Positions 36,115 to 49,672 of a stretch of DNA of 64,000 bases are shown here, one piece after another (the stretch's first letter is position 1; each line of letters begins with the position of its first letter). The notes beneath the pieces were generated by a model that saw nothing but the letters and a program-made list of their open reading frames with translations, was not told the DNA's origin and did not search any database. The stretch is from Candidatus Oxydemutatoraceae bacterium (lineage in GTDB: Bacteria > Pseudomonadota > Gammaproteobacteria > Poriferisulfidales > Oxydemutatoraceae): positions 652,769 to 716,768 of the forward strand of contig OZ244779.1 in NCBI GenBank assembly GCA_965219575.1, written 5' to 3'. The translations under genes were made by a program, and so were the position numbers.

Positions 36115-38973
36115 GTATTAGCCAATTTATCACCTAGTCGAATAATCAACTAACGGACATAAAGTAATCTTAGATATCTAGTTTCCTGAAGGTTTTATCG
36201 GCATCAAGGGTGACATTTCTACTTTGGTCAAGGGGGTGACATTTCTACTTTGGGTTGACACTTCCTCTAAAAACTCGTCGGAAAGAATAGAAATGTCGGG
36301 CTTCTTGATTCCCGCTGCATCAAAAATGTCGATAACCTCGTCGGTCGCAATCGCTTTATCAACGATTTGTTTAATTGCCGTTTCTATCTCGACATCGCTT
36401 TTCCCGTCATCCGACGATTCTAGTTTTATTAGTCTAGCTTTCACCGCTTCAAAAAAGCCTAGCTCATCTCTGATTTTCGCTGCCTCGTCGCTAGGCACCG
36501 AGAGCGCAAATGTTTTTGCTAGTACCGAGACTTGTTCTATATACCTTTTCTTGCCATCGTCCAAATTGAGTATATGCTCCTGCGCCTCCAAAATGATGGT
36601 CAGTTTTCTCCCAGTATCGGCAGCGAAGTATCGCTTGTAGTCAAAACCATTGAACAACTGCACAACGATTTCGTATTTTTCCATCATCGTTGCAATTGCG
36701 GTTTCCTGTTCCAATGCAGGTTTCCCTCGCCCACCACTATTCGTATAAATCGCAAGTGCCTGTTTCAAGTCGTGAGCAATTCCGATGTAATCCACCACAA
36801 GTCCGCCGGGTTTATTTTTATAGACCCTGTTGACGCGCGCAATCGCCTGCATAAGATTATGCCCACGCATCGGTTTGTCTATATACATCGTATGTAAAGA
36901 CGGTGCATCAAAACCGGTCAACCACATATCCCGCACGATAACCAGCTTCAAAGAATCCGTGGGATCCTTAAACCGATCCCCCAATTCTTTCTTTTGCCTC
37001 TTGGTTGTGCGATGCGGCTGATAACTTGACGGGTCGCTTGAATTAGAAGTCATAATGACCTTTATCCGCCCTTTCTCAAGATCGGTATCATGCCAATCCG
37101 GACGAAACTTAGTAATCATGTCGTATAGCGCAACGGCAATACGCCGGCTCATTGCAACAATGATGCCTTTGCCTTCAAGTGCTTTTTGTCGTTCCTCAGA
37201 ATGCTCAACGATGTCTTGTGCAACTACTTTCAGCCGTTCCTCATTACCTACGATCGCTTCCATTTGCGCCCATTTTGCCTTCGCTTTCTCCGTAGCGGTG
37301 AACTCCTGATCTTCGGTAATCTGTTCAACCTCATCATCCAGCTTTTGCATTTCCTCCGGCTTCAGATGCACATGCGCAAGACGCGACGCATAGTAAATGG
37401 GAATAGTTGCCCCATCTTCCACCGATTGTTGAATATCATAAATGTCAATATAATTGCCGAAAATTGCCGGTGTTGAAATGTCCGCTCTCTCAATCGGTGT
37501 TCCGGTAAAGCCGATGAAAGAAGCGTTCGGTAAGGCATCCCGCAGATACTTAGCAAAACCATAGCGTATAGATACTCGATTATCTTTTATGCCGGTTATC
37601 GCTTTGAAGCCGTATTGAGAGCGATGCGCCTCATCGGCAATAACAACGATGTTTTCGCGTTTTGAGAGTAGTTCAAATTGCTCTCTATCCTCTTCGGGAG
37701 AAAATTTTTGAATCGTTGTAAAAACGATGCCACTGCCTCGTGTTTGCAAAAGTTTTTTTAAGTGATCGCGAGATTGCGCTTGCACCGGTTCTTTTATTAG
37801 TAATTGCCGACTCGCCGCAAATGCCCCGAACAACTGGTCGTCAAGATCATTTCTATCGGTCAGCACGAGCAAGATCGGATTCTTCATACGCGCATCTCCC
37901 ATCAACCTGCCGGCATAAAAAACCATAGAAAGCGATTTGCCGCTGCCTTGCGTGTGCCAAACAACACCGACTTTTCTATCACCCGCCGGTTGGGTATCGA
38001 CCATCGGCAAATCGGAGTCCTTGGGTGCTTTCTTCGCTGCTTCGGAAACTCCCGTAGCAGTCGCCCGAATGGTTGACTCCACTGCCTTGCACACTGCGTA
38101 ATACTGATGGTATGCAGCAATTTTTTTGCTGGTTTCGGCTTGCGATTTTTCAAAAACCGTAAACTGCTTGATAAGGTCAAGAAGCACATCGGGACGAAGC
38201 ATCCCTTTAATAAGCGTTTCTACCTGTGGTGTCGTGCTTTTATCCTCTCTGACACCGTCAACGGTTTTCCATGCCATGAAACGGTCCATGCCTGCCGTGA
38301 GCGAACCTGCTCTGGCATCGAGACCATCCGACGCAACCAAAACCCCGTTGTAGTAAAACAAACTCGGCGCAGCCTTCTTATAATTCTGTAACTGAGTATA
38401 TGCTTTTTTAACCGTAGCCTTCTCATCGGTAGGGTTTTTGAGTTCAATCACAACCAAAGGTAAACCGTTGATTAATAAAACCACATCGGGGCGTATCTTT
38501 GTCTTATTTTTATTCTCTACGACGGTATACTGATTGCAAACGATGAGATCGTTGTTCATCGGGTTTTCAAAATCAACCAACATGACCTTACCACCGACCG
38601 TGTCGCCTTCTTTTTGGTATTCCAACGCAAAACCCTCAATCAAGTACCGATGAAAAGTCTCATTGTTTTCAATCATGCTCTGACTGGATAATCCTAAAAC
38701 TTCTCGTAGCGCATATTCCCGCTCATCTTCGGGAATATCGGGATTAAGGCGAGTGACGGCATCCTTTAGATGCTTTCGGCAAACAACCTCCGAAAAATCA
38801 CCACGCGCCCGCTCCTGTTCCTCCGGTGAAAGATAGGTATACCCCTGCGCCTGCAAAAGCTCTATCACCCACTCTTCAACTTCGGATTCGTAGAGGGAAA
38901 GCATGATTGTTGATTGTGAAGATTGGTGCTGTATTTAGGGCAAGCATACACCGATAGAGAACAAACTACGACA

Positions 38974-40713
38974 CTAGTCGTATTCCAATTCTACCCGCCT
39001 ACCTAATAACTTACCTTCTTCGGATTCATCGTTTAGTTTACAAACCGTGTTTTGTCTTATAAAAGCCTGAACCGGTTCAGCTAAGGTTATTAAGTCCTTC
39101 TGGTTGATACTCGCTATATATTGTTTATCCTTAAATTTATCGCGAACAATATCAAACAACACCTCACAATGTGTTTCATCAATATCGCTGAATAACCTGC
39201 TGTCATGAAAAATAAAATCTATATGATGATTGTTAGCACCGAATAGCACACATAAGTCATAACAAAACAATTTGACACTATTAATTCCATCGGAAGAATC
39301 CGATTGTATTTTTGCTTCTATATTATATCTAATTTGATTTTCCCCTTCGTTATTGACAATCGTGATACCGGCTAGTTCATCGGGGTAAAATTTCTTTGCC
39401 AAAGTCCTAAAATCGTTATTAATAGATTCTAAAAAAGATTCGTTTATTTCCAAGTATTCGGTTGTTTTGCCGTTTTCGTCTACTAGACTTTGTTCTAATT
39501 TTTTTATTTCCTTCTTACATTCTTTCTGAAATTTTTGATAAGAAACCAACTTTTCTCTTTTTTGTTTTAGCTCGCTTAATTGTTTGTTCTTTTCAACAAA
39601 AACATCCAATGCGCCATGTGCCCCGAGGAACGCCAAGGTTTCGTCAAATTGTGTTTGTGATTTTGCCGCCTCTGCTTCTAACTTTTCTAACTCGCTCATA
39701 ATTGACCGTTTTTGCTCCGCTAATCTTTTTGTACGATTAGTCTTCAAATCCATATAAAATTTTTCTAAATCCGATAACCTCTTTTCTACTTTAACTAGAA
39801 ATACCTTTTTAGACTCTTCGTATATTTTTTTAATGTCCTTCTGATCTATATCAACTTCAAAGCGTAAACTCTGATCGATCCGCTTTATGGTACTTTTATG
39901 TAGATAAATTTGCTTTTGCTTCTCATCAATCAATTTTTTCAACTGATCCGCTTCTTCCTGACGCTGATAATAATCTTTGGCAACCCTATAGTTTTTTAGA
40001 TCTTTCTCCAACTTTTTAATTCTCTCCTCTATATCCGTAAGCAGTAATAGATAATCGTTACTCACATTTTGATTGTGACCGAAAAACCCTCTCATGATAG
40101 GATCCTTTTCTGTGTTTCGTAAGCTATTTCTTCGTATCGTTAAATCGTCTTTTAGTACTTTTTTCTTATCGGCTAAAAAGACATCCAAGCCTAATAAAAA
40201 AGCGTTGTAAAGTAGTTTTTGATACGATTGCTTAAATTTTTGAGGTTCATCATAATTTGTATATGAAGTTTTTGATGGTCTCAGAAAAAACGGCAGCAAA
40301 GAACGAAAAGTCAAGAACTTGAAACCTTCCTCTATATCAAAACATAGCTCTTGCATTCGTTGGTAAAATTCTGTCAGTTTCAAAGTTTCATCGTTCAACT
40401 CAATTAAGTTATGATTATCAACCGATCTTGTAATAATGTAGGACTTACCCTTTATGCTGAGCTTCAAGGTGAACTTCCAATCTTTTAAGTCATCACACGA
40501 ACTTAATGTTTTAGTGATGCCACTACTCGCACCGGCACCCAGACAAAAATCAACTAACGCAACTAAAAGAGATTTACCGACACCATTGTAGGTCTTCTTT
40601 TTATCACTCTGTCCGGGGTTTTTCTGTTCGGCAATAATAAAGCTAGCACCCGATGGATTAAAGTCTATTTTTTTGAAACTCTCTTGGTTTGCCGATATTG
40701 AAATTAAACGCAT
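38974..40713 (-). CDS. ABC-three-component / Lamassu-like SMC-type ATPase (DUF2326, LmuB-like)
   Basis: NGVGKS Walker A, long coiled coil, SSDG signature variant, FIFHDS Walker B, QYIASIN. Confidence 0.88.
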   Translation of the reverse strand: MRLISISANQESFKKIDFNPSGASFIIAEQKNPGQSDKKKTYNGVGKSLLVALVDFCLGAGASSGITKTLSSCDDLKDWKFTLKLSIKGKSYIITRSVDNHNLIELNDETLKLTEFYQRMQELCFDIEEGFKFLTFRSLLPFFLRPSKTSYTNYDEPQKFKQSYQKLLYNAFLLGLDVFLADKKKVLKDDLTIRRNSLRNTEKDPIMRGFFGHNQNVSNDYLLLLTDIEERIKKLEKDLKNYRVAKDYYQRQEEADQLKKLIDEKQKQIYLHKSTIKRIDQSLRFEVDIDQKDIKKIYEESKKVFLVKVEKRLSDLEKFYMDLKTNRTKRLAEQKRSIMSELEKLEAEAAKSQTQFDETLAFLGAHGALDVFVEKNKQLSELKQKREKLVSYQKFQKECKKEIKKLEQSLVDENGKTTEYLEINESFLESINNDFRTLAKKFYPDELAGITIVNNEGENQIRYNIEAKIQSDSSDGINSVKLFCYDLCVLFGANNHHIDFIFHDSRLFSDIDETHCEVLFDIVRDKFKDKQYIASINQKDLITLAEPVQAFIRQNTVCKLNDESEEGKLLGRRVELEYD

Positions 40714-40946
40714 CTTTTTATAAGCCCGTCCTGTTCAAGAATACAATCTGCAACATATAAAAAAATCAAAGTCATAATCAAATTATCAAAAGTATGTTTC
40801 CCGGGATATTTCTTCTTCTTATAGTCCTTGCGATATTGTTGCCATAAATCATCAATACTTCGGGAACTATCAAGCAATGACAACACATAGGAACCGAACC
40901 CTAATAGGGACTTGGAAAAATTAATATTTTTTGTGGGTAATATCAT
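40704..40946 (-). CDS. ABC-three-component middle component (LmuC-like)
   Basis: MILPTK....SLLG.G, LIFLY pattern; overlaps both neighbours. Confidence 0.8.
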   Translation of the reverse strand: MILPTKNINFSKSLLGFGSYVLSLLDSSRSIDDLWQQYRKDYKKKKYPGKHTFDNLIMTLIFLYVADCILEQDGLIKRCV

Positions 40947-41836
40947 TTAGGCTCCTCAAAAATATCACAAATTTCAAAATACTTAGCCATTATTATAATC
41001 GCTGCAGATTGGAATAGTTGTTCCTGCCTATGACTAATAGTATTCATTATTTTCATAAATAATTTGTCTCCCGAAAACTCTCTCGCTTTATTGATATAAA
41101 TTTCTCTGACCCGATCCTTGACCTGTTCCGCAAAAAAATTACTATTGTTGTCAAGACATTCATCCAGTTCGGCAACATGTAAAAAACCCTGCTCCAAGTA
41201 TCTTTTCACTGCCTCCGATAAACCATTAAATTCGATCTTCTCACCCCAATTCGGATATTTAATGTCACCATCCTGAGTGTCGCTAATATCTATTTTCATT
41301 AGATGTGTTATTACTTCGTCTAAAACAGAATAGTCTAAGTGTATTTCTTCAGGATTGGGAAATGAACCGGTAATACTTAATATTTGGTCATCATCTAAAG
41401 AAGAGAAGACTAAATCTTCCAATTTATTAACACCCCAGACCTCTGTTTTTATATCGTAATTGCCGGCAATTTTCTCGACGGCTTGTAACAGATGCGGCGG
41501 CACTCCGTGATATTTATCGTTGATAACAAAATAATATGCTTTGATTTCTTTCCACTTTTTTAAAAGACCGGCAAAATCGGATTCTAGCTTCTTGACCCCA
41601 TTACCGAGAGATTTGCGTATGTCTTCCGGAGCATAGACCTGAAAATATATCCCTTGTGACGGAATATAACCATCAGTTTTGTAATCACCGATATTGCCCC
41701 ATGGTTTTATCCGTTGAAAATCCGGTTCTGCATAGTTCATAATACGAGCGAATAGATCCTCAAAAGATTTTCCTTCGGTTTCGTGTATTTTTAGCTTAAA
41801 GAGTATTCTGGCTAGATATTTTCCCTTGTCATCCAT
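40943..41836 (-). CDS. ABC-three-component effector with restriction-endonuclease-like N-terminus (LmuA-like)
   Basis: FEDLF..IM, GDYKTDG...FQVYAP nuclease-like motif, C-terminal YFEICDIFE motif. Confidence 0.8.
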   Translation of the reverse strand: MDDKGKYLARILFKLKIHETEGKSFEDLFARIMNYAEPDFQRIKPWGNIGDYKTDGYIPSQGIYFQVYAPEDIRKSLGNGVKKLESDFAGLLKKWKEIKAYYFVINDKYHGVPPHLLQAVEKIAGNYDIKTEVWGVNKLEDLVFSSLDDDQILSITGSFPNPEEIHLDYSVLDEVITHLMKIDISDTQDGDIKYPNWGEKIEFNGLSEAVKRYLEQGFLHVAELDECLDNNSNFFAEQVKDRVREIYINKAREFSGDKLFMKIMNTISHRQEQLFQSAAIIIMAKYFEICDIFEEPK

Positions 41837-42094
41837 TTTTCTGTATATTAAAAACTTCCGATTGAGTATTGAAATTATATTCGGTGCCAAAAGCAACGGG
41901 CAAAAACACATTATAGATTAAACGACACTTTGATAAGATAAATTTACACCTTATTTTGTAGGTGTTTTCTTATCCGACATTAAAGCTGTTTTACCCGTGC
42001 CTCACCGTTCATCAGTTGCGGATTCGTAGAGGGAAAGCATGAAGGTTGATTGTGAAGATTGGTGCTTAGGTAGCAGTCTAGGAATGAGGAAATG

Positions 42095-43321
42095 TCAATT
42101 TTCGTATGAAACGGTCTTGTAGTCAAAAAGAATCACTTTTTTATTGGGAAATATCTCCCTAGATCTTTCATCATCTCGGTCTTTATCCTTCTCACAGCTA
42201 GAAATATAGATATCGGATATTTCACTTTTATTAATCCCTTCATGTATATGCCTATCATTTTCGCTAAGAGAACTGCCAAAAATCATTAAGTGCCCGGTTA
42301 AAGCCGACAATTCCTCAAAACATTTTTTTAAATATACATTTTCTTTAATATCTTTTATTTTAGCTTCACTAGTGCCGGCAAACACGCATATTATATCCAT
42401 TTCTTCACTATCAATAATTTCCTCTAATCTTTCATACAAAGCCTTATCTTGACTTTGTGTTATTTTCTCTACCAGTTGTTTATTCTTGTATATATGAAAA
42501 GCTCCATGTAAGAAAAAAAGATTCTGCATCGCTAGTATTTTTGGTTTAAATTCATTACCTAAAAATCCATCATTAACATGTAAGCCTGAATATTCTTTAT
42601 TTTTGTTTAATACAATATTAATAGCTTCTTTAATAGCTCGGCTATTCTGACCTCGACCCTTGAAGTACTCTTTAGCTAACTCTTCATATAGAGCTTTTCT
42701 ACATTTATCTACATCTCTTTGGATTTTACCGTTTTCAACTGTGAGTGAAAAATTTCCCTTTTCATGAATTTTCTCTACTTCATTATAGAGGTCATTGTGA
42801 GTTTTATTTAAGTCTTCCGCTTGGAAAAGAGAAGTCTGTTTGGATGCGATAACATCACTGTTATCATCTTTCTTATATTTCATCAAAAGAAGGTACAAAA
42901 AAGGATCATAGTTGAGGGTAAAGTAGTTAGTAAAATTTTTTAGTAAGACATGTATTCCGCTATTTTTGCAAGGATATACCTCTTTTATTTGTTTTTTAGC
43001 AAGGTCAAACGCCGCATGCATAAAATCTCTCTTGATTTTTCTTTCAATATATTGCGGTAAAAAATCGTCATCCAAAACTTTATTTTTTAAGTATTCAATC
43101 AAAGCCTCAATACTATGACCTCGTTGTTCAAAATTAGCCTCTACTTTTCTATAGTCAGGATATTTCTCCTTCATTTTCTCAAAAATACTTTGATAACTGG
43201 TTTCAATACCCAAGGAATTATTAAAACCATTGCCTAGCAATAAATGATTAGAAGAATTACTGCCTAACTGTTTCAGAATTTCTTTATAAGTTTTTAAGTG
43301 TACTTCTTTTTTAATGATCAG
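42095..43321 (-). CDS. DUF4917 family (SIR2-like fold) protein; start uncertain (TTG 43240 or non-canonical near 43321)
   Basis: LLLGNGF, FTLNYD, LHGAFH, IFGSSL..ND.HI motifs. Confidence 0.75.
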   Translation of the reverse strand: MIIKKEVHLKTYKEILKQLGSNSSNHLLLGNGFNNSLGIETSYQSIFEKMKEKYPDYRKVEANFEQRGHSIEALIEYLKNKVLDDDFLPQYIERKIKRDFMHAAFDLAKKQIKEVYPCKNSGIHVLLKNFTNYFTLNYDPFLYLLLMKYKKDDNSDVIASKQTSLFQAEDLNKTHNDLYNEVEKIHEKGNFSLTVENGKIQRDVDKCRKALYEELAKEYFKGRGQNSRAIKEAINIVLNKNKEYSGLHVNDGFLGNEFKPKILAMQNLFFLHGAFHIYKNKQLVEKITQSQDKALYERLEEIIDSEEMDIICVFAGTSEAKIKDIKENVYLKKCFEELSALTGHLMIFGSSLSENDRHIHEGINKSEISDIYISSCEKDKDRDDERSREIFPNKKVILFDYKTVSYEN

Positions 43322-44784
43322 AAACCTCCTACCCTAACTTGGCCATTCATCAGTTTCGGAAGAAGCGCATCTCGTGTAGCATCGAGCGCGCGAAGCTGTA
43401 AAGTATTATTTTTAAGTTTAAGGGTTATATCTTCACACTGCTTGCTAAATTTTTCCAGTATTATCGGAGGAGGGATATATATTGGATATTCCTCTAGACT
43501 TGTTGCTTGGGCTCTTTGCCTTCCACTTGTTCCAATCATCGTGCCGATTGCGTAGTTACGGAAAATGTTATTTTTTGCAATAACATAAGATAAAAGCGGT
43601 GGCAAATTAGGTTTTGAACGCATAATAATATACTCGGTTGACCCCCATCCTGTTTCGTTTTCTTTTAAGAAGTCTACAAAACATGCTTTACCATTTTCTA
43701 AGCATGGCGTGATTCTTGCAAAAAGTGTATCTCCATTTTGAAACCGCATTCCGGACTTAAAAGCTCGGTTACACCAATTTAATGGAGTATGAGAATTTAC
43801 GTCAATATTACTCATTTCAAGATAGGGTGCTAAGGTCCCCTTTTTCAGGTTATATTTAGGATTAATATCCATAATTTCAACTAATTTTTTCTTTTCCCAT
43901 GTATCGTCTGCATCGTCGATAAACCATTTTTGAAATAGGATTTGTGCCATGTTCTCCAGAGTTTTGTTTTGTCGGTGTAAAAGATCTATTTTGTCGTCAA
44001 GGCTACTCAAAACTTCGGCGATGGCTTTTTGTTCGGGAAGAGAGGGAATGTAAAATGGTATAGATGTTAAGGAGGCTTTAGATAACTCACCAAAAGTTGT
44101 TCCACTTGAATGTGCTTTAAGATAATCAACATTGTGTTTCAACAGATAATATAAAAATAAATTATCAATATGTCTGTTTGCAATTAATCCCTTAAATCCC
44201 TGATTGACAGCAATCTCATCTCTAGCAATTGCCAAGTAACCAACTGGTGCTCTAGTAGTTAAAAGCACCGCTCCTACGGGAAGTAATTTTGCATTTGAAT
44301 TTTGTAATCCTAATTTGGATATGTTTCTCTCACCTTTAGCTATATATCTACACTTAAAATCAGATAAATCTCTGGGTGTTAACCAAGGAATGTCACCATT
44401 CCAATATTTAGGTTCTTTGGTACTGGGTGTTCCTCCGCCTATTATTTCTACAACATCTCCCAATTTAACTTCACGCCACCCTCTCCGATAGATCGTTTTG
44501 CCTTTGACCTTGATTTGGTTTTTCAGTTCGATGGAGGTGATGGCGTTGTAGGCGATGACATCAAAAAAGAAAGGCAGATAGGTTTCTTCTTCTAAATGGA
44601 ATTTTAGTTTTGCGGCAAGGGATTCGTTGGTTTTTTCTCCTTTGATGGCAATATCTACATCCGAGGCTTCTTTATAAGCACCATCAGCTCGTGAACCGTA
44701 AATAACCGCTGCTTCTATTTGAGGATATGAACCGATGATATTACAGATCTCCGCTAGTTGTTCTTCGGACAAACCGTATTTCAT
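43318..44784 (-). CDS. hsdS: Type I specificity subunit S with N-terminal fused minimal nucleotidyltransferase (MNT) domain
   Basis: First ~100 aa have GSRADGAYKEASDVD (GSx10DxD); then W..VKLGDV, two TRDs, P.LPEQKAIA, RDALLPKLMNG. Confidence 0.92.
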   Translation of the reverse strand: MKYGLSEEQLAEICNIIGSYPQIEAAVIYGSRADGAYKEASDVDIAIKGEKTNESLAAKLKFHLEEETYLPFFFDVIAYNAITSIELKNQIKVKGKTIYRRGWREVKLGDVVEIIGGGTPSTKEPKYWNGDIPWLTPRDLSDFKCRYIAKGERNISKLGLQNSNAKLLPVGAVLLTTRAPVGYLAIARDEIAVNQGFKGLIANRHIDNLFLYYLLKHNVDYLKAHSSGTTFGELSKASLTSIPFYIPSLPEQKAIAEVLSSLDDKIDLLHRQNKTLENMAQILFQKWFIDDADDTWEKKKLVEIMDINPKYNLKKGTLAPYLEMSNIDVNSHTPLNWCNRAFKSGMRFQNGDTLFARITPCLENGKACFVDFLKENETGWGSTEYIIMRSKPNLPPLLSYVIAKNNIFRNYAIGTMIGTSGRQRAQATSLEEYPIYIPPPIILEKFSKQCEDITLKLKNNTLQLRALDATRDALLPKLMNGQVRVGGF

Positions 44785-45188
44785 AGTTCTTTTTTCAATT
44801 GAAAATACAGATCCCGAACAATAGGATAAAAGGTCTCGGTAATAAATTGAATGACTTCTCGCAAAGTATCCTCATGATAGGTATGAACCGTTTTATTTCT
44901 TTGGGCGATTGATTCCATCCATGGTTCTATATTGAATATCAGTTCGTTTTGAAATGCATTTCTGAATACATTCTTGGTGCTATTGTTCACATCCACGCCT
45001 TCGTTTTGTAAATAATCTTTGAGTACTTTCCAGCTGAGTTCATACACAAATTCAAAAGATTTTATCAATGCTATTTGGTAACCTTCGTCGTTAGGATATT
45101 GCTCGTATTGATTTATCCGTCTCTGCAAAGCCTCAAAGGCTTTTTCAAAATTTTGAAAACGTTGTTTCCATCTCAAATCATCATCCAT
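44781..45188 (-). CDS. HEPN-domain toxin (HI0074/NTase substrate-binding family, HepT-like)
   Basis: RWKQRFQNF, FEFVYELSWK, RNKTVHTY = Rx4HxY motif; ATGA overlap with the MNT-hsdS start. Confidence 0.9.
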   Translation of the reverse strand: MDDDLRWKQRFQNFEKAFEALQRRINQYEQYPNDEGYQIALIKSFEFVYELSWKVLKDYLQNEGVDVNNSTKNVFRNAFQNELIFNIEPWMESIAQRNKTVHTYHEDTLREVIQFITETFYPIVRDLYFQLKKEL

Positions 45189-45212: not shown

Positions 45213-46769
45213 TTATTTCTCATATTCAATTTTGTTTAAGTTCTCTAAAATCCGTTTGCTCAATCCAGCCTCTGCTCTCACCTGTGTTTCAAACTCTACT
45301 TTTAGTTCTGAAAAACGCTCGGCAAAGTCATGGTCGTCCTCTGTTTCTACGGTGCCTACATAACGTCCCGGGCTCAGCACATAATCCAATTCTTTTACTC
45401 TCTCAATCGCTACCGATGCACAAAAGCCCGGAACATCTTTGTATTGACCGTCCGTTTTCCTCCATTGGTGGTAGGTGTCGGAAACCTTGCCGATGTCTTC
45501 ATCGGAAAATTCTCGGGTACGTCTGTTTATTAAATATCCCAAGTGCTGTGCGTCAATGAATAGCATTTCTCCGCTACGACTTCTGTCGCCGTTAAAGCCG
45601 TATCGTTTATTGGATATGAACCAGAGGCACGCAGGAATCTGTGTATTGAGGAATAATTTTGTCGGCAGGTTGACGATGCAGTCTACAAAACTGCCGTCGA
45701 TTAAGTTTTTTCGGATGACATCCTCGCCGGAAGTTTTAGAAGTTAGCGAGCCTTTGGACAAAACAAAGCCTGCCACACCTTTAGGGCTTAGGTGATATAA
45801 GAAGTGTTGCACCCATGCAAAGTTAGCATTGCTCGCCGGCGGCGTGCCGTATTTCCAACGCGGGTCGTCTCGTAGTAGGTCGCCGCTCCAGTCGCTATCG
45901 TTAAACGGTGGATTGGCAAGTATAAAGTCGGCTTTCAAATCGGGGTAGGCATCTTTCAAAAATGAACCTTCGTTGTTCCATTGCACCTGTGAACCGTCAA
46001 TGTTCCGAATTGCCAGATTCATTCGGCATAATCTATAGGTTGTTTGATTACTCTCTTGTCCGTAAATAGAAATGTCTTTGATTAGCCCGCTATGCTCTTC
46101 AACAAATTTTTCGCTCATCACAAACATACCGCCGCTACCACAGCAAGGATCAAAAACTCTGCCGTGATAAGGTTCTATCATCTCAACCAAGAGCTTCACA
46201 ATGGATTTAGGCGTATAGAATTGACCGCCCTTTTTGCCTTCCGCTAAAGCAAACTCTCCCAAAAAATACTCATAGACTTTGCCTAGAATGTCCCTCGACT
46301 GCTCGGCTGCTTCACCTAAAGCAATATCGCTGATTAAATCAATCAGACCGCCTAGGGTGGTCCTGTCAAGGTTCGGTTTTGCATAGACCTTAGGTAAAAT
46401 ACCCTTGAGGTTGGGACTCTCCTTTTCTATCTTTTCCATTGCCGAGTCTAAATCTTTGCCGATATTCGATAGCTTGGCACGATCTTTCAAGTACGACCAG
46501 CGAGCCTCTTCAGGAACCCAAAAGGTATTCCTAGATGCGTATTCATCGGGATCTTCGGGGTCGGGTGGAAATTCCACTTTGGTTTCTTTTAATTTGCGGT
46601 TTAATTCGCGATGTTGTGTCTCGAAAGAATCCGATATGTATCTGAGAAATATCAAGCCGAGTACTATATGTTTGTATTCCGCCGCGTCAATGTTTTTGCG
46701 TAGCTTATCGGCTACTTTGAATAATTGCGCCTCTATATTTTCAACTTTTTTTGTATTGTTTTTTGCCAT
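45213..46769 (-). CDS. hsdM: Type I RM methyltransferase subunit M
   Basis: GQFYTP, DPCCGSGG, ANPPFN. Confidence 0.97.
   Translation of the reverse strand: MAKNNTKKVENIEAQLFKVADKLRKNIDAAEYKHIVLGLIFLRYISDSFETQHRELNRKLKETKVEFPPDPEDPDEYASRNTFWVPEEARWSYLKDRAKLSNIGKDLDSAMEKIEKESPNLKGILPKVYAKPNLDRTTLGGLIDLISDIALGEAAEQSRDILGKVYEYFLGEFALAEGKKGGQFYTPKSIVKLLVEMIEPYHGRVFDPCCGSGGMFVMSEKFVEEHSGLIKDISIYGQESNQTTYRLCRMNLAIRNIDGSQVQWNNEGSFLKDAYPDLKADFILANPPFNDSDWSGDLLRDDPRWKYGTPPASNANFAWVQHFLYHLSPKGVAGFVLSKGSLTSKTSGEDVIRKNLIDGSFVDCIVNLPTKLFLNTQIPACLWFISNKRYGFNGDRSRSGEMLFIDAQHLGYLINRRTREFSDEDIGKVSDTYHQWRKTDGQYKDVPGFCASVAIERVKELDYVLSPGRYVGTVETEDDHDFAERFSELKVEFETQVRAEAGLSKRILENLNKIEYEK

Positions 46770-47500: not shown

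Positions 47501-49672
<2,172 letters not shown>

Follow-up and report, generated by a model that had tools for sequence, protein, structure and literature searches.

Prior work has described HEPN–MNT pairs and their tendency to cluster with restriction operons, as well as toxin–antitoxin (TA) pairs within type I systems (PMC3710099, PMC3632139, PMC12255303; here and below, articles are cited for those parts of their text that were covered). Here, we describe a locus from a Candidatus Oxydemutatoraceae bacterium (GenBank assembly GCA_965219575.1, contig OZ244779.1, positions 652,769 to 716,768 of the forward strand; this whole stretch of 64,000 nucleotides is hereafter called the window) in which an MNT domain of the antitoxin kind forms the N-terminus of HsdS, the specificity subunit of a type I restriction-modification enzyme. 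The fusion is confirmed as one uninterrupted open reading frame (ORF) of 488 aa (43318..44784, − strand), found in the ORF list and the raw sequence, and the gene of a 135-aa HEPN protein lies directly upstream of it (44781..45188, −).

The best solved match for both parts of this module is the type VII pair lpg2920/lpg2921 of Legionella pneumophila (PDB 8xdj, 8xeh, 8xem, and 8xeo). In this pair, HEPN is encoded first and its gene overlaps that of MNT by 8 bp, the MNT of about 100 aa is devoid of the C-terminal alpha4 that antitoxins from Shewanella and Aphanizomenon possess, each HEPN tetramer is bound by a single MNT monomer (1:4), and Tyr105 of the RX4HXY motif of HEPN is AMPylated by MNT (PMC11586414). 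According to the model of its authors, HEPN would be left unmodified when ATP is low, and a phosphodiesterase could reactivate the toxin (PMC11586414). The window locus resembles the Legionella pair in its HEPN-first order, its alpha4-less MNT, and its RX4HXY motif, but the Legionella MNT is a free protein, described with no mention of restriction genes (the word "restriction" occurs zero times in the covered text of PMC11586414), whereas the window MNT is the N-terminal domain of HsdS, and the proposed Mg-site residue Q44 of the Legionella system is a Lys in the window protein. HepT/MntA of Shewanella oneidensis (SO_3166/SO_3165) similarly consists of a HEPN RNase with an Rx4-6H motif and of a neighboring MNT, encoded by overlapping genes (PMC4621449), and the fold of the window MNT matches Shewanella-type MNTs at E about 5e-4 (6m6u_A and 7bxo_E); yet, in Shewanella, the MNT gene comes first and the antitoxin bears the extra alpha4 (PMC11586414), and there is no HsdS fusion. 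As for HI0073/HI0074 of Haemophilus influenzae, the window HEPN passes TIGR01987, the model of the HI0074 family, and the structures 1jog (E 1e-7) and 1no5 are matched, but the relationship is distant, the two proteins are free, and their entries give structure only. Judged by its sequence, gene order, and modeled structure, the window module is thus a member of the alpha4-less, HEPN-first subfamily (HI0074/Legionella type) and not a HepT/MntA system proper, and a short, monomer-acting MNT of this kind, with its free C-terminus, can accept a C-terminal fusion. The idea that the gene order of the window is "reversed" was rejected, as HEPN-first order is native to this subfamily, both in the solved relative and in 24 of 25 loci sampled in the same class.

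Restriction enzymes and HEPN toxins are also associated in PrrC, an RNase of the HEPN superfamily whose gene lies within the type IC EcoprrI locus; the restriction enzyme holds PrrC silent until phage inhibition of that enzyme unleashes it (PMC3710099, PMC12707154). However, PrrC is a single chain that begins with an ABC ATPase and lacks an MNT, it is silenced by non-covalent association rather than by AMPylation, and it shares with the window locus only the proposed guard logic. In the RRDM island of enteropathogenic Escherichia coli (EPEC), the DarTG2 TA pair is nested between hsd genes (PMC12255303), and defense genes nested in type I operons have been discussed as "guilt by embedding" (preprint 10.1101/2024.01.29.577857); embedded genes of the DarTG2 type encode separate proteins, whereas the window antitoxin is covalently part of HsdS. 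An initial annotation of the window had relied on two elements of this background, namely that MNT AMPylates a Tyr of HEPN and that PrrC guards a type I complex, and both agree with the sources (PMC11586414 for the former, PMC12707154 and PMC3710099 for the latter).

That same annotation knew of no described system with this architecture, and our literature searches agree: no description of an MNT–HsdS fusion was found in full-text searches, within a coverage that excludes the figures and the full supplement of PMC3710099. Such a fusion is absent from the covered parts of the texts of PMC3710099, PMC3632139, PMC2701414, PMC12839542, and PMC4621449, as well as from those of PMC11586414, PMC12707154, PMC12255303, and 10.1101/2024.01.29.577857. 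In the covered text of PMC3710099, the HEPN domains of restriction systems are fused to nucleases, helicases, and ATPases, not to methylases; the legend of its Figure 5 carries a target-recognition-domain (TRD) label, the figure itself being outside coverage, and the covered part of its supplement (4,325 characters) contains no TRD or HsdS term. The new element is hence the fusion of the antitoxin MNT to HsdS, which is real, widespread, and amenable to testing, and whose special function is putative.

An MNT Domain That Continues Directly into HsdS

In the fusion protein, the alpha4-less MNT domain covers residues 1-100 (44485..44784, −), and the HsdS body covers residues 101-488 plus the stop codon (43318..44484, −). 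Pfam recognizes Polbeta (PF18765, aa 12-101, E 1.6e-14) and Methylase_S (PF01420, E 2.6e-43) in the 488-aa sequence, and PADLOC recognizes Specificity_I (E 2.4e-98). The GSx10DxD motif announced in the initial annotation is present as G30-S31, ten residues, and D42-V-D44. These four catalytic-motif positions (G30, S31, D42, and D44) and the third acidic residue, D75, are invariant among 83 aligned fused proteins, and GS..DxD is kept in 132/132 fused proteins; the stricter pattern G[ST]..[ST]DxD fits 131 of these 132, the remaining one having an A in place of S/T before DxD. Among solved structures, the MNT part matches 8xeh_E ("MNT") at E 8.8e-8, with 8xeh/8xeo at E about 1e-7, and the Foldseek alignment of residues 1-100 with 8xeo_B reaches a target-normalised TM-score of 0.91 with an rmsd of 1.4 over 100 columns.

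An AlphaFold model of the whole fusion, built on 83 fused homologues, has a mean pLDDT of 94.9 and a pTM of 0.84, with no segment below 50. In this model, an alpha/beta domain (1-100) continues directly into the HsdS body, where two long helices (249-290 and 440-479) are predicted, as in an HsdS with two TRDs; the approximate subdivisions are TRD1 101-245, CR1 246-295, TRD2 296-437, and CR2 438-488. Foldseek aligned this body with whole HsdS chains (1yf2_A at E 3.7e-24, 7vs4_C, 2y7c_A, and 1ydx). The single ORF, the Pfam domains, the model, and the Foldseek matches thereby uphold the earlier claim that MNT reads without a stop into a full two-TRD HsdS.

The junction between both parts (aa 96-107, 44464..44499, −) contains neither a stop in the ORF nor a disordered linker in the model, with a pLDDT of 92 for the block 91-100 and of 94 for the block 101-110. 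The modeled MNT ends in a strand after its third helix, without alpha4, and this last MNT strand (96-100) continues into the first HsdS strand (104-107). G95, in the former strand, and W103, in the latter, are invariant in fused proteins, and the spacer between them is short: 7 aa in 56/118 full-length fused proteins, 10 aa in 41/118, and at most 13 aa in 113/118. A few long spacers (25-54 aa) retain an apparent old HsdS start, which is expected from read-through of a lost stop.

Comparison of the window protein with its closest homologues further indicates that the MNT domain is stable, when the TRDs behind it are not. P0003 is 99% identical to the window protein in MNT and 93% in TRD2, with only 26% in TRD1; P0006 is 98% identical in MNT and 99% in TRD1, with 22% in TRD2; and in P0121, 96% identity in MNT goes with 31% in TRD1 and 22% in TRD2. 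TRD1 and TRD2 have thus been exchanged independently among near-identical MNT–HsdS proteins (MNT 96-99%, swapped TRDs 22-31%), which implies that the junction was retained through several TRD1 exchanges and that MNT-coding DNA provides a constant arm on the 5' side of TRD1.

The HEPN Partner

The HEPN protein is a predicted RNase toxin of the NTase_sub_bind/HI0074 family. It matches NTase_sub_bind (PF08780, E 1e-35, 122.9 bits vs a cut-off of 31.8) and HepT-like (PF01934, E 8.3e-8) in Pfam, falls within the HI0074 family of NCBIfam with 82.7 bits against a cut-off of 55.8, and has PDB 8xdj ("HEPN toxin", E 1.4e-20) as its best solved match. Its motif RNKTVHTY (R97, H102, and Y104) is the intact Rx4HxY previously reported for the window; Rx4HxY is present in 37/37 HEPN ORFs of related loci, and W90, R97, H102, and Y104 are invariant among 38 aligned HEPN sequences, in which Glu46 is nearly invariant (at least 90% of sequences). 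In the two closest relatives (L001:5597-6004 and L002:5597-6004), Glu46 is replaced by Ile and Rx4HxY is kept. With GS..DxD in all 132 fused proteins and Rx4HxY in all 37 HEPN ORFs, the activities of MNT and HEPN both appear to be under selection.

The stop of HEPN and the start of MNT–HsdS overlap by ATGA (44781..44784, −, read in the raw sequence), exactly as first annotated, and this overlap suggests that their translation is coupled. PF08780 and PF01934 are the only families matched by the window HEPN, which has no ATPase domain; membership in PrrC/RloC was considered and rejected, because the 135-aa protein does not have their layout of an N-terminal ABC ATPase and a C-terminal HEPN. A search for longer proteins containing a window-type HEPN returned none among 198 candidates, which is weak evidence.

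Recurrence of the Fusion across Lineages

PF18765 and PF01420 co-occur in 47 of the best 120 whole-protein matches and in 119 of the best 120 matches to the MNT region, the latter being scored on residues 1-105 in proteins of 268-854 aa (170 matches among 335 candidates). Combined, these two best-120 sets yield at least 147 distinct 90%-identity cluster representatives with both domains, so that the fusion, whose recurrence the initial annotation had proposed to check, is not unique to this assembly. The one exception among the best 120 MNT-region matches is P0219 (324 aa), in which an MNT 60-62% identical to that of the window is joined to the last 120 positions of the C-terminal domain of HsdR (PF11867); a deletion within a fused locus may have produced it. 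Fused proteins are publicly named "restriction endonuclease subunit S" or "type I restriction enzyme S subunit", two short ones are annotated "predicted nucleotidyltransferase", and a name look-up of ten fused clusters found a single named one ("restriction endonuclease subunit S").

The genomic context of the fusion is equally recurrent. Among 80 species-representative genome loci that were kept (all loci being drawn from pattern-seeded scans rather than from an unbiased census), eight hold the MNT, and in 8/8 of these, MNT–HsdS is one open frame with HEPN directly upstream and hsdM before HEPN; the ATGA overlap is found in 6/8. These eight loci span six different lineages and come from two "Ca. 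Porisulfidus" metagenome-assembled genomes, an unclassified bacterium, a Methylococcales sponge symbiont, a Bacteroidales, a Nitrospirota, "Ca. Helicobacter avistercoris", and a Rickettsiales. Profile searches of 80 metagenome loci revealed 8 further fused loci, each with HEPN upstream; two of the metagenome loci, L142 and L143, seem to be the same element in two copies, L149 is cut at a contig end, and L160 is unfused. Overall, HEPN is directly upstream in 19/19 other fused loci with readable upstream DNA (8 + 8 + 3). The fused loci are also complete type I operons: an hsdM relative is upstream in 17/19, the 2 misses running out of flank, and an hsdR relative follows downstream on the same strand in 12/19, the other 7 running out of flank. 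The conservation of HEPN and hsdM upstream of the fusion, which had also been put forward as a check, is therefore found across these loci.

In 400 genomes of the same class, MNT relatives (E <=1e-10) were detected in 25, of which 4, including the window genome, have MNT fused to HsdS and 19 carry plain standalone pairs; HEPN is directly upstream of MNT in 24/25 of these loci. Methylase_S is found in 189/401 same-class genomes (a tally that includes G296, G308, and G039), such that about 2% of the HsdS-bearing genomes in this sample carry the fusion. No fused form was found on plasmids: 50 of the records of PLSDB (72,556 plasmids) match a 140-aa junction query, 0 cover 80% of it, and the matches are standalone pairs only. 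Nor was a fused form found in IMG/VR, where 9 loci match with their HsdS part only.

A locus of another composition was also observed (L165:1351-3027, +): its 558-aa ORF has an MNT-like start with a degraded motif (DS for GS, DVT for DVD) and continues into a TSPPF-bearing region, read from this motif as a putative DNA-methyltransferase, and no HEPN gene is found upstream.

Fused and Standalone MNT Domains

To place the fused MNTs among their standalone relatives, we considered the 2242 MNT-domain relatives found at E <=0.001 among 50%-identity representatives. The best 150 of these 2242 comprise 70 proteins with HsdS after MNT, 67 standalone MNTs (<=125 aa), and 13 others. No standalone MNT (<=125 aa) occurs before rank 43, ranks 1-42 being occupied by proteins with HsdS after MNT, apart from three short forms (ranks 19, 29, and 34) whose tail is not HsdS. 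A quick maximum-likelihood tree was inferred from 144 rows, that is, the window protein and 143/150 relatives, seven having been dropped for a profile match below 80 positions; with 100 columns only, this tree is poorly resolved. In this phylogeny, one clade (98% SH-aLRT, 91 rows) holds 66/69 fused rows along with 19 standalone rows, and the fused/standalone label changes 15 times, versus a mean of 44.5 in shuffles. The fusion is hence strongly clustered on the tree, yet it has been gained or lost several times.

Unfused neighbors of the same genes illustrate the other state. In L160 (1527-6123, +), the hsdM–hsdS slot contains a DUF1016/YhcG-like gene, a TIR-domain gene, HEPN (145 aa), and MNT (104 aa, with its own stop), followed by a 203-aa ORF without Pfam match and then by hsdS; in L178, HEPN and MNT are followed, after 58 nt, by a split hsdS. 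The window genome itself encodes, outside the window, a second, standalone HEPN (137 aa)–MNT (113 aa) pair (L082, G000:C1:606128-609334), whose ORFs (1769-2182 and 1435-1776, −) lie beside tyrosine-recombinase-like (integrase) and transposase-like ORFs and have Pfam families in common with the window HEPN and MNT.

The Type I Operon and Its Accessory Genes

The gene of the DNA methyltransferase subunit, hsdM (45213..46769, −, 518 aa; N6_Mtase E 1.1e-105, HsdM_N E 3.9e-26), lies upstream of HEPN, as had been annotated, and that of the restriction subunit, hsdR (36178..38904, −, 908 aa), has HSDR_N, SWI2_SNF2, and T1RH-like_C domains and scores 616 bits against TIGR00348 (cut-off 284.55). Both are on the same strand and in the same operon as MNT–HsdS, as in a type I system, and the window locus is a complete type I operon with hsdM, hsdS, inserted defense genes, and hsdR. 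The inserted genes (38974-43240, −), which separate hsdS from hsdR, are a DUF4917 gene (42095..43240, −; PF16263 E 2.9e-17), a PADLOC candidate of type PDC-S21 (E 1.1e-38), and a three-gene ABC-3C system (38974..41911, −; PADLOC PDC-M68) composed of a CTD10 protein (E 5.6e-12), MC6 (E 3.4e-14), and a DUF2326 ATPase (E 8.5e-27; PDC-M68B E 9.2e-79). The GC content of this insert is 0.32-0.36 (0.32-0.35 for the DUF4917 gene), versus 0.43-0.55 in its flanks. Between 35800 and 47600, scans found no excess of promoters (36 sites vs 30.3 in shuffles, sd 4.3) or of terminators (11 vs 10.4, sd 3.4). Upstream of hsdM, a 719-aa ORF (47501-49660, −) is catalase-peroxidase-like, judged by its translation; in L001 (497-2656), the equivalent position is taken by an ORF of equal length (719 aa) that matches a peroxidase family of Pfam, and the two loci appear syntenic.

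Both slots of the operon are variable in relatives. In unfused relatives, the hsdM–hsdS slot (50 ORFs scanned) harbors Fic, RhuM, YhcG/DUF1016, ORF6N/KilA-N, Schlafen-AlbA2, PIN, NYN, DUF4145, GIY-YIG, and PF05168 HEPN genes, and this variety of toxin-like genes indicates that the HEPN–MNT pair occupies a position that type I operons generally use for accessory genes. In the relatives, the hsdS–hsdR inserts include SIR2-HerA, ABC-3C, a Shedu-like gene, a Hachiman-like pair, and DUF6978 with DUF1828/1829.

How the Fusion May Work and Competing Explanations

From a mechanistic perspective, the observed architecture can be accounted for as follows. A HEPN–MNT pair of the lpg2920/lpg2921 kind has taken the hsdM–hsdS slot, where MNT has lost its stop and makes up the first 100 residues of an HsdS that is ordinary in other respects; this much is shown by the sequence. 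HEPN would be made first, and the fusion would be translated by coupling at ATGA. By analogy with Legionella, HEPN is probably an RNase, which the HsdS-borne MNT would keep off through an ATP-dependent AMPylation of Tyr104 in the Rx4HxY motif. As the solved relative has one MNT monomer per HEPN tetramer, a single HsdS-borne MNT per M2S1 core would be workable, one MNT presumably serving a whole HEPN tetramer. The silencing of the RNase would then be tied to the supply, and possibly to the state, of the HsdS/methylase core, as well as to ATP, and its most likely role would be to back up restriction by abortive infection or dormancy, with a PrrC-like logic and a type VII chemistry. We hold this reading, in which a physical tie to the HsdS/methylase core keeps the toxin silent and the RNase is a restriction-linked back-up, to have roughly even chances of being right. 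A stronger version, close to the guard proposed in the initial annotation, gives the part of the antitoxin to the type I methylase core itself: with MNT fixed to HsdS by the short, conserved junction, HEPN would be silent only while intact HsdS complexes and ATP are available, and phage anti-restriction proteins, proteolysis of the complex, or a drain of ATP would release an abortive-infection RNase. This version is plausible, but we deem it unlikely.

With regard to binding between the two partners, a complex prediction with MNT 1-105 and HEPN gave a score of 0.36, which is weak support (best control 0.00), with 100% contact agreement between runs and a partner pLDDT of at least 89, for a domain-cut pair rather than for the 1:4 stoichiometry. 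The mark used is reached by 116/157 solved complexes and 2/215 mismatches, and passes at 0.60 or below comprise only 18/157 solved complexes along with both passing mismatches. Since a like complex is already solved, the score may merely reflect that structure, and the prediction shows likeness rather than binding.

Several points weigh against a physical tie between toxin silencing and HsdS. Besides the weakness of the prediction just described, the NCBIfam equivalog models (NF047751/NF047752) are not reached, as the HEPN scores 24.6 bits against HepT_toxin and the MNT part 40.9 bits against MntA_antitoxin, both with a cut-off of 60, and the Ile46 of L001 and L002 aligns with E47, the proposed catalytic Mg-site residue of the Legionella HEPN. 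Catalytic AMPylation needs no tether for silencing, and a modified HEPN stays off until it is de-AMPylated. The addiction lock on hsdS raised in the initial annotation would be leaky, since the antitoxin domain would survive in an HsdS cut short after residue 100. At least 4 of the fused/standalone changes are forced by well-supported branches of the tree, so that the fusion is not obligatory; this interchange of fused and standalone forms within one clade weakens any inference of a guard or of addiction, and the unfused HEPN–MNT–hsdS arrangements of L160 and L178 and the standalone pair encoded elsewhere in the window genome point in the same direction.

Much of this evidence would fit the main rival, an incidental fusion, that is, an ordinary HEPN–MNT pair beside hsdS that lost a stop, acts like any type VII module in defense or stabilization, and does not read the state of the restriction enzyme. 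The 66 fused and 19 standalone rows interleaved in one clade with 15 changes, the unfused neighbors L160 and L178, the long spacers that keep the old HsdS start as by simple read-through, the acceptance of many unrelated accessory genes by the hsdM–hsdS slot, the 19/25 plain standalone relatives of the same-class sample, and the fact that catalytic AMPylation works untethered can all be cited in its favor. However, at least six lineages have maintained the fusion, which also withstood repeated swapping of TRDs, 113/118 proteins have a short, conserved junction, and no standalone MNT (<=125 aa) is found among the 42 nearest of the best 150 relatives; this persistence across lineages and TRD exchanges, with a short junction, suggests that selection rather than drift retains the fusion, and we regard an incidental origin as somewhat unlikely. 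A trivial cause of the same kind, a stop lost or a frameshift introduced by sequencing or assembly between a separate MNT and hsdS, could likewise invoke the unfused arrangements seen elsewhere (L160 and L178), but one open frame is found in 8/8 genome loci and 8 metagenome loci from independent assemblies, which makes a stop missing from this assembly alone very unlikely, 119 of the best 120 MNT-region matches are two-domain, and the junction is both conserved and confidently modeled; the chance of an artefact is, in our view, negligible.

The pair might also be a device for addiction, such that a cell losing hsdS and its surroundings, or the entire operon and the defense genes within it, would pay a price. 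HEPN–MNT pairs do give plasmid stability in Shewanella (PMC4621449), TA pairs such as DarTG2 are known to be embedded in type I operons (PMC12255303), and the low-GC insert of further defense genes could profit from stabilization. Such addiction nevertheless strikes us as quite improbable, given that the toxin gene adjoins the antitoxin, so that a deletion usually removes both, that truncations of HsdS after residue 100 spare MNT, that the toxin, once AMPylated, would not be reactivated by loss of the genes unless de-AMPylated, and that no fused form was found on the 72,556 plasmids searched (none of the 50 matching records covering 80% of the junction query). The pair could, alternatively, be a two-part nucleotidyltransferase with another target, HEPN binding a substrate and MNT modifying a phage protein, a nucleic acid, HsdM, or HsdR, as is hinted at by the Pfam/NCBIfam names of the HI0074 family ("nucleotidyltransferase substrate binding protein") and compatible with invariant MNT catalytic residues. 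Yet, the HEPN of the closest solved relative is itself the AMPylated substrate and an RNase (PMC11586414), and neither the acceptor Tyr nor any of the Rx4H residues varies in the family, such that we give this explanation a very small chance.

Implications for Restriction-Linked Toxins

Restriction-modification operons harbor many toxins, but only a handful have had their silencing and release worked out in detail, PrrC being the classic case. On this basis, the MNT–HsdS fusion is of interest because it writes the link between toxin control and restriction into one polypeptide that recurs in many lineages, and because it offers a clean experimental handle. If the type I methylase core were genuinely the antitoxin, the fusion would represent a PrrC-like guard that arose independently, by means of type VII chemistry, and that extends over many phyla. 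If the fusion were instead functionally neutral, these proteins would still constitute a well-populated, unnamed subfamily of HsdS.

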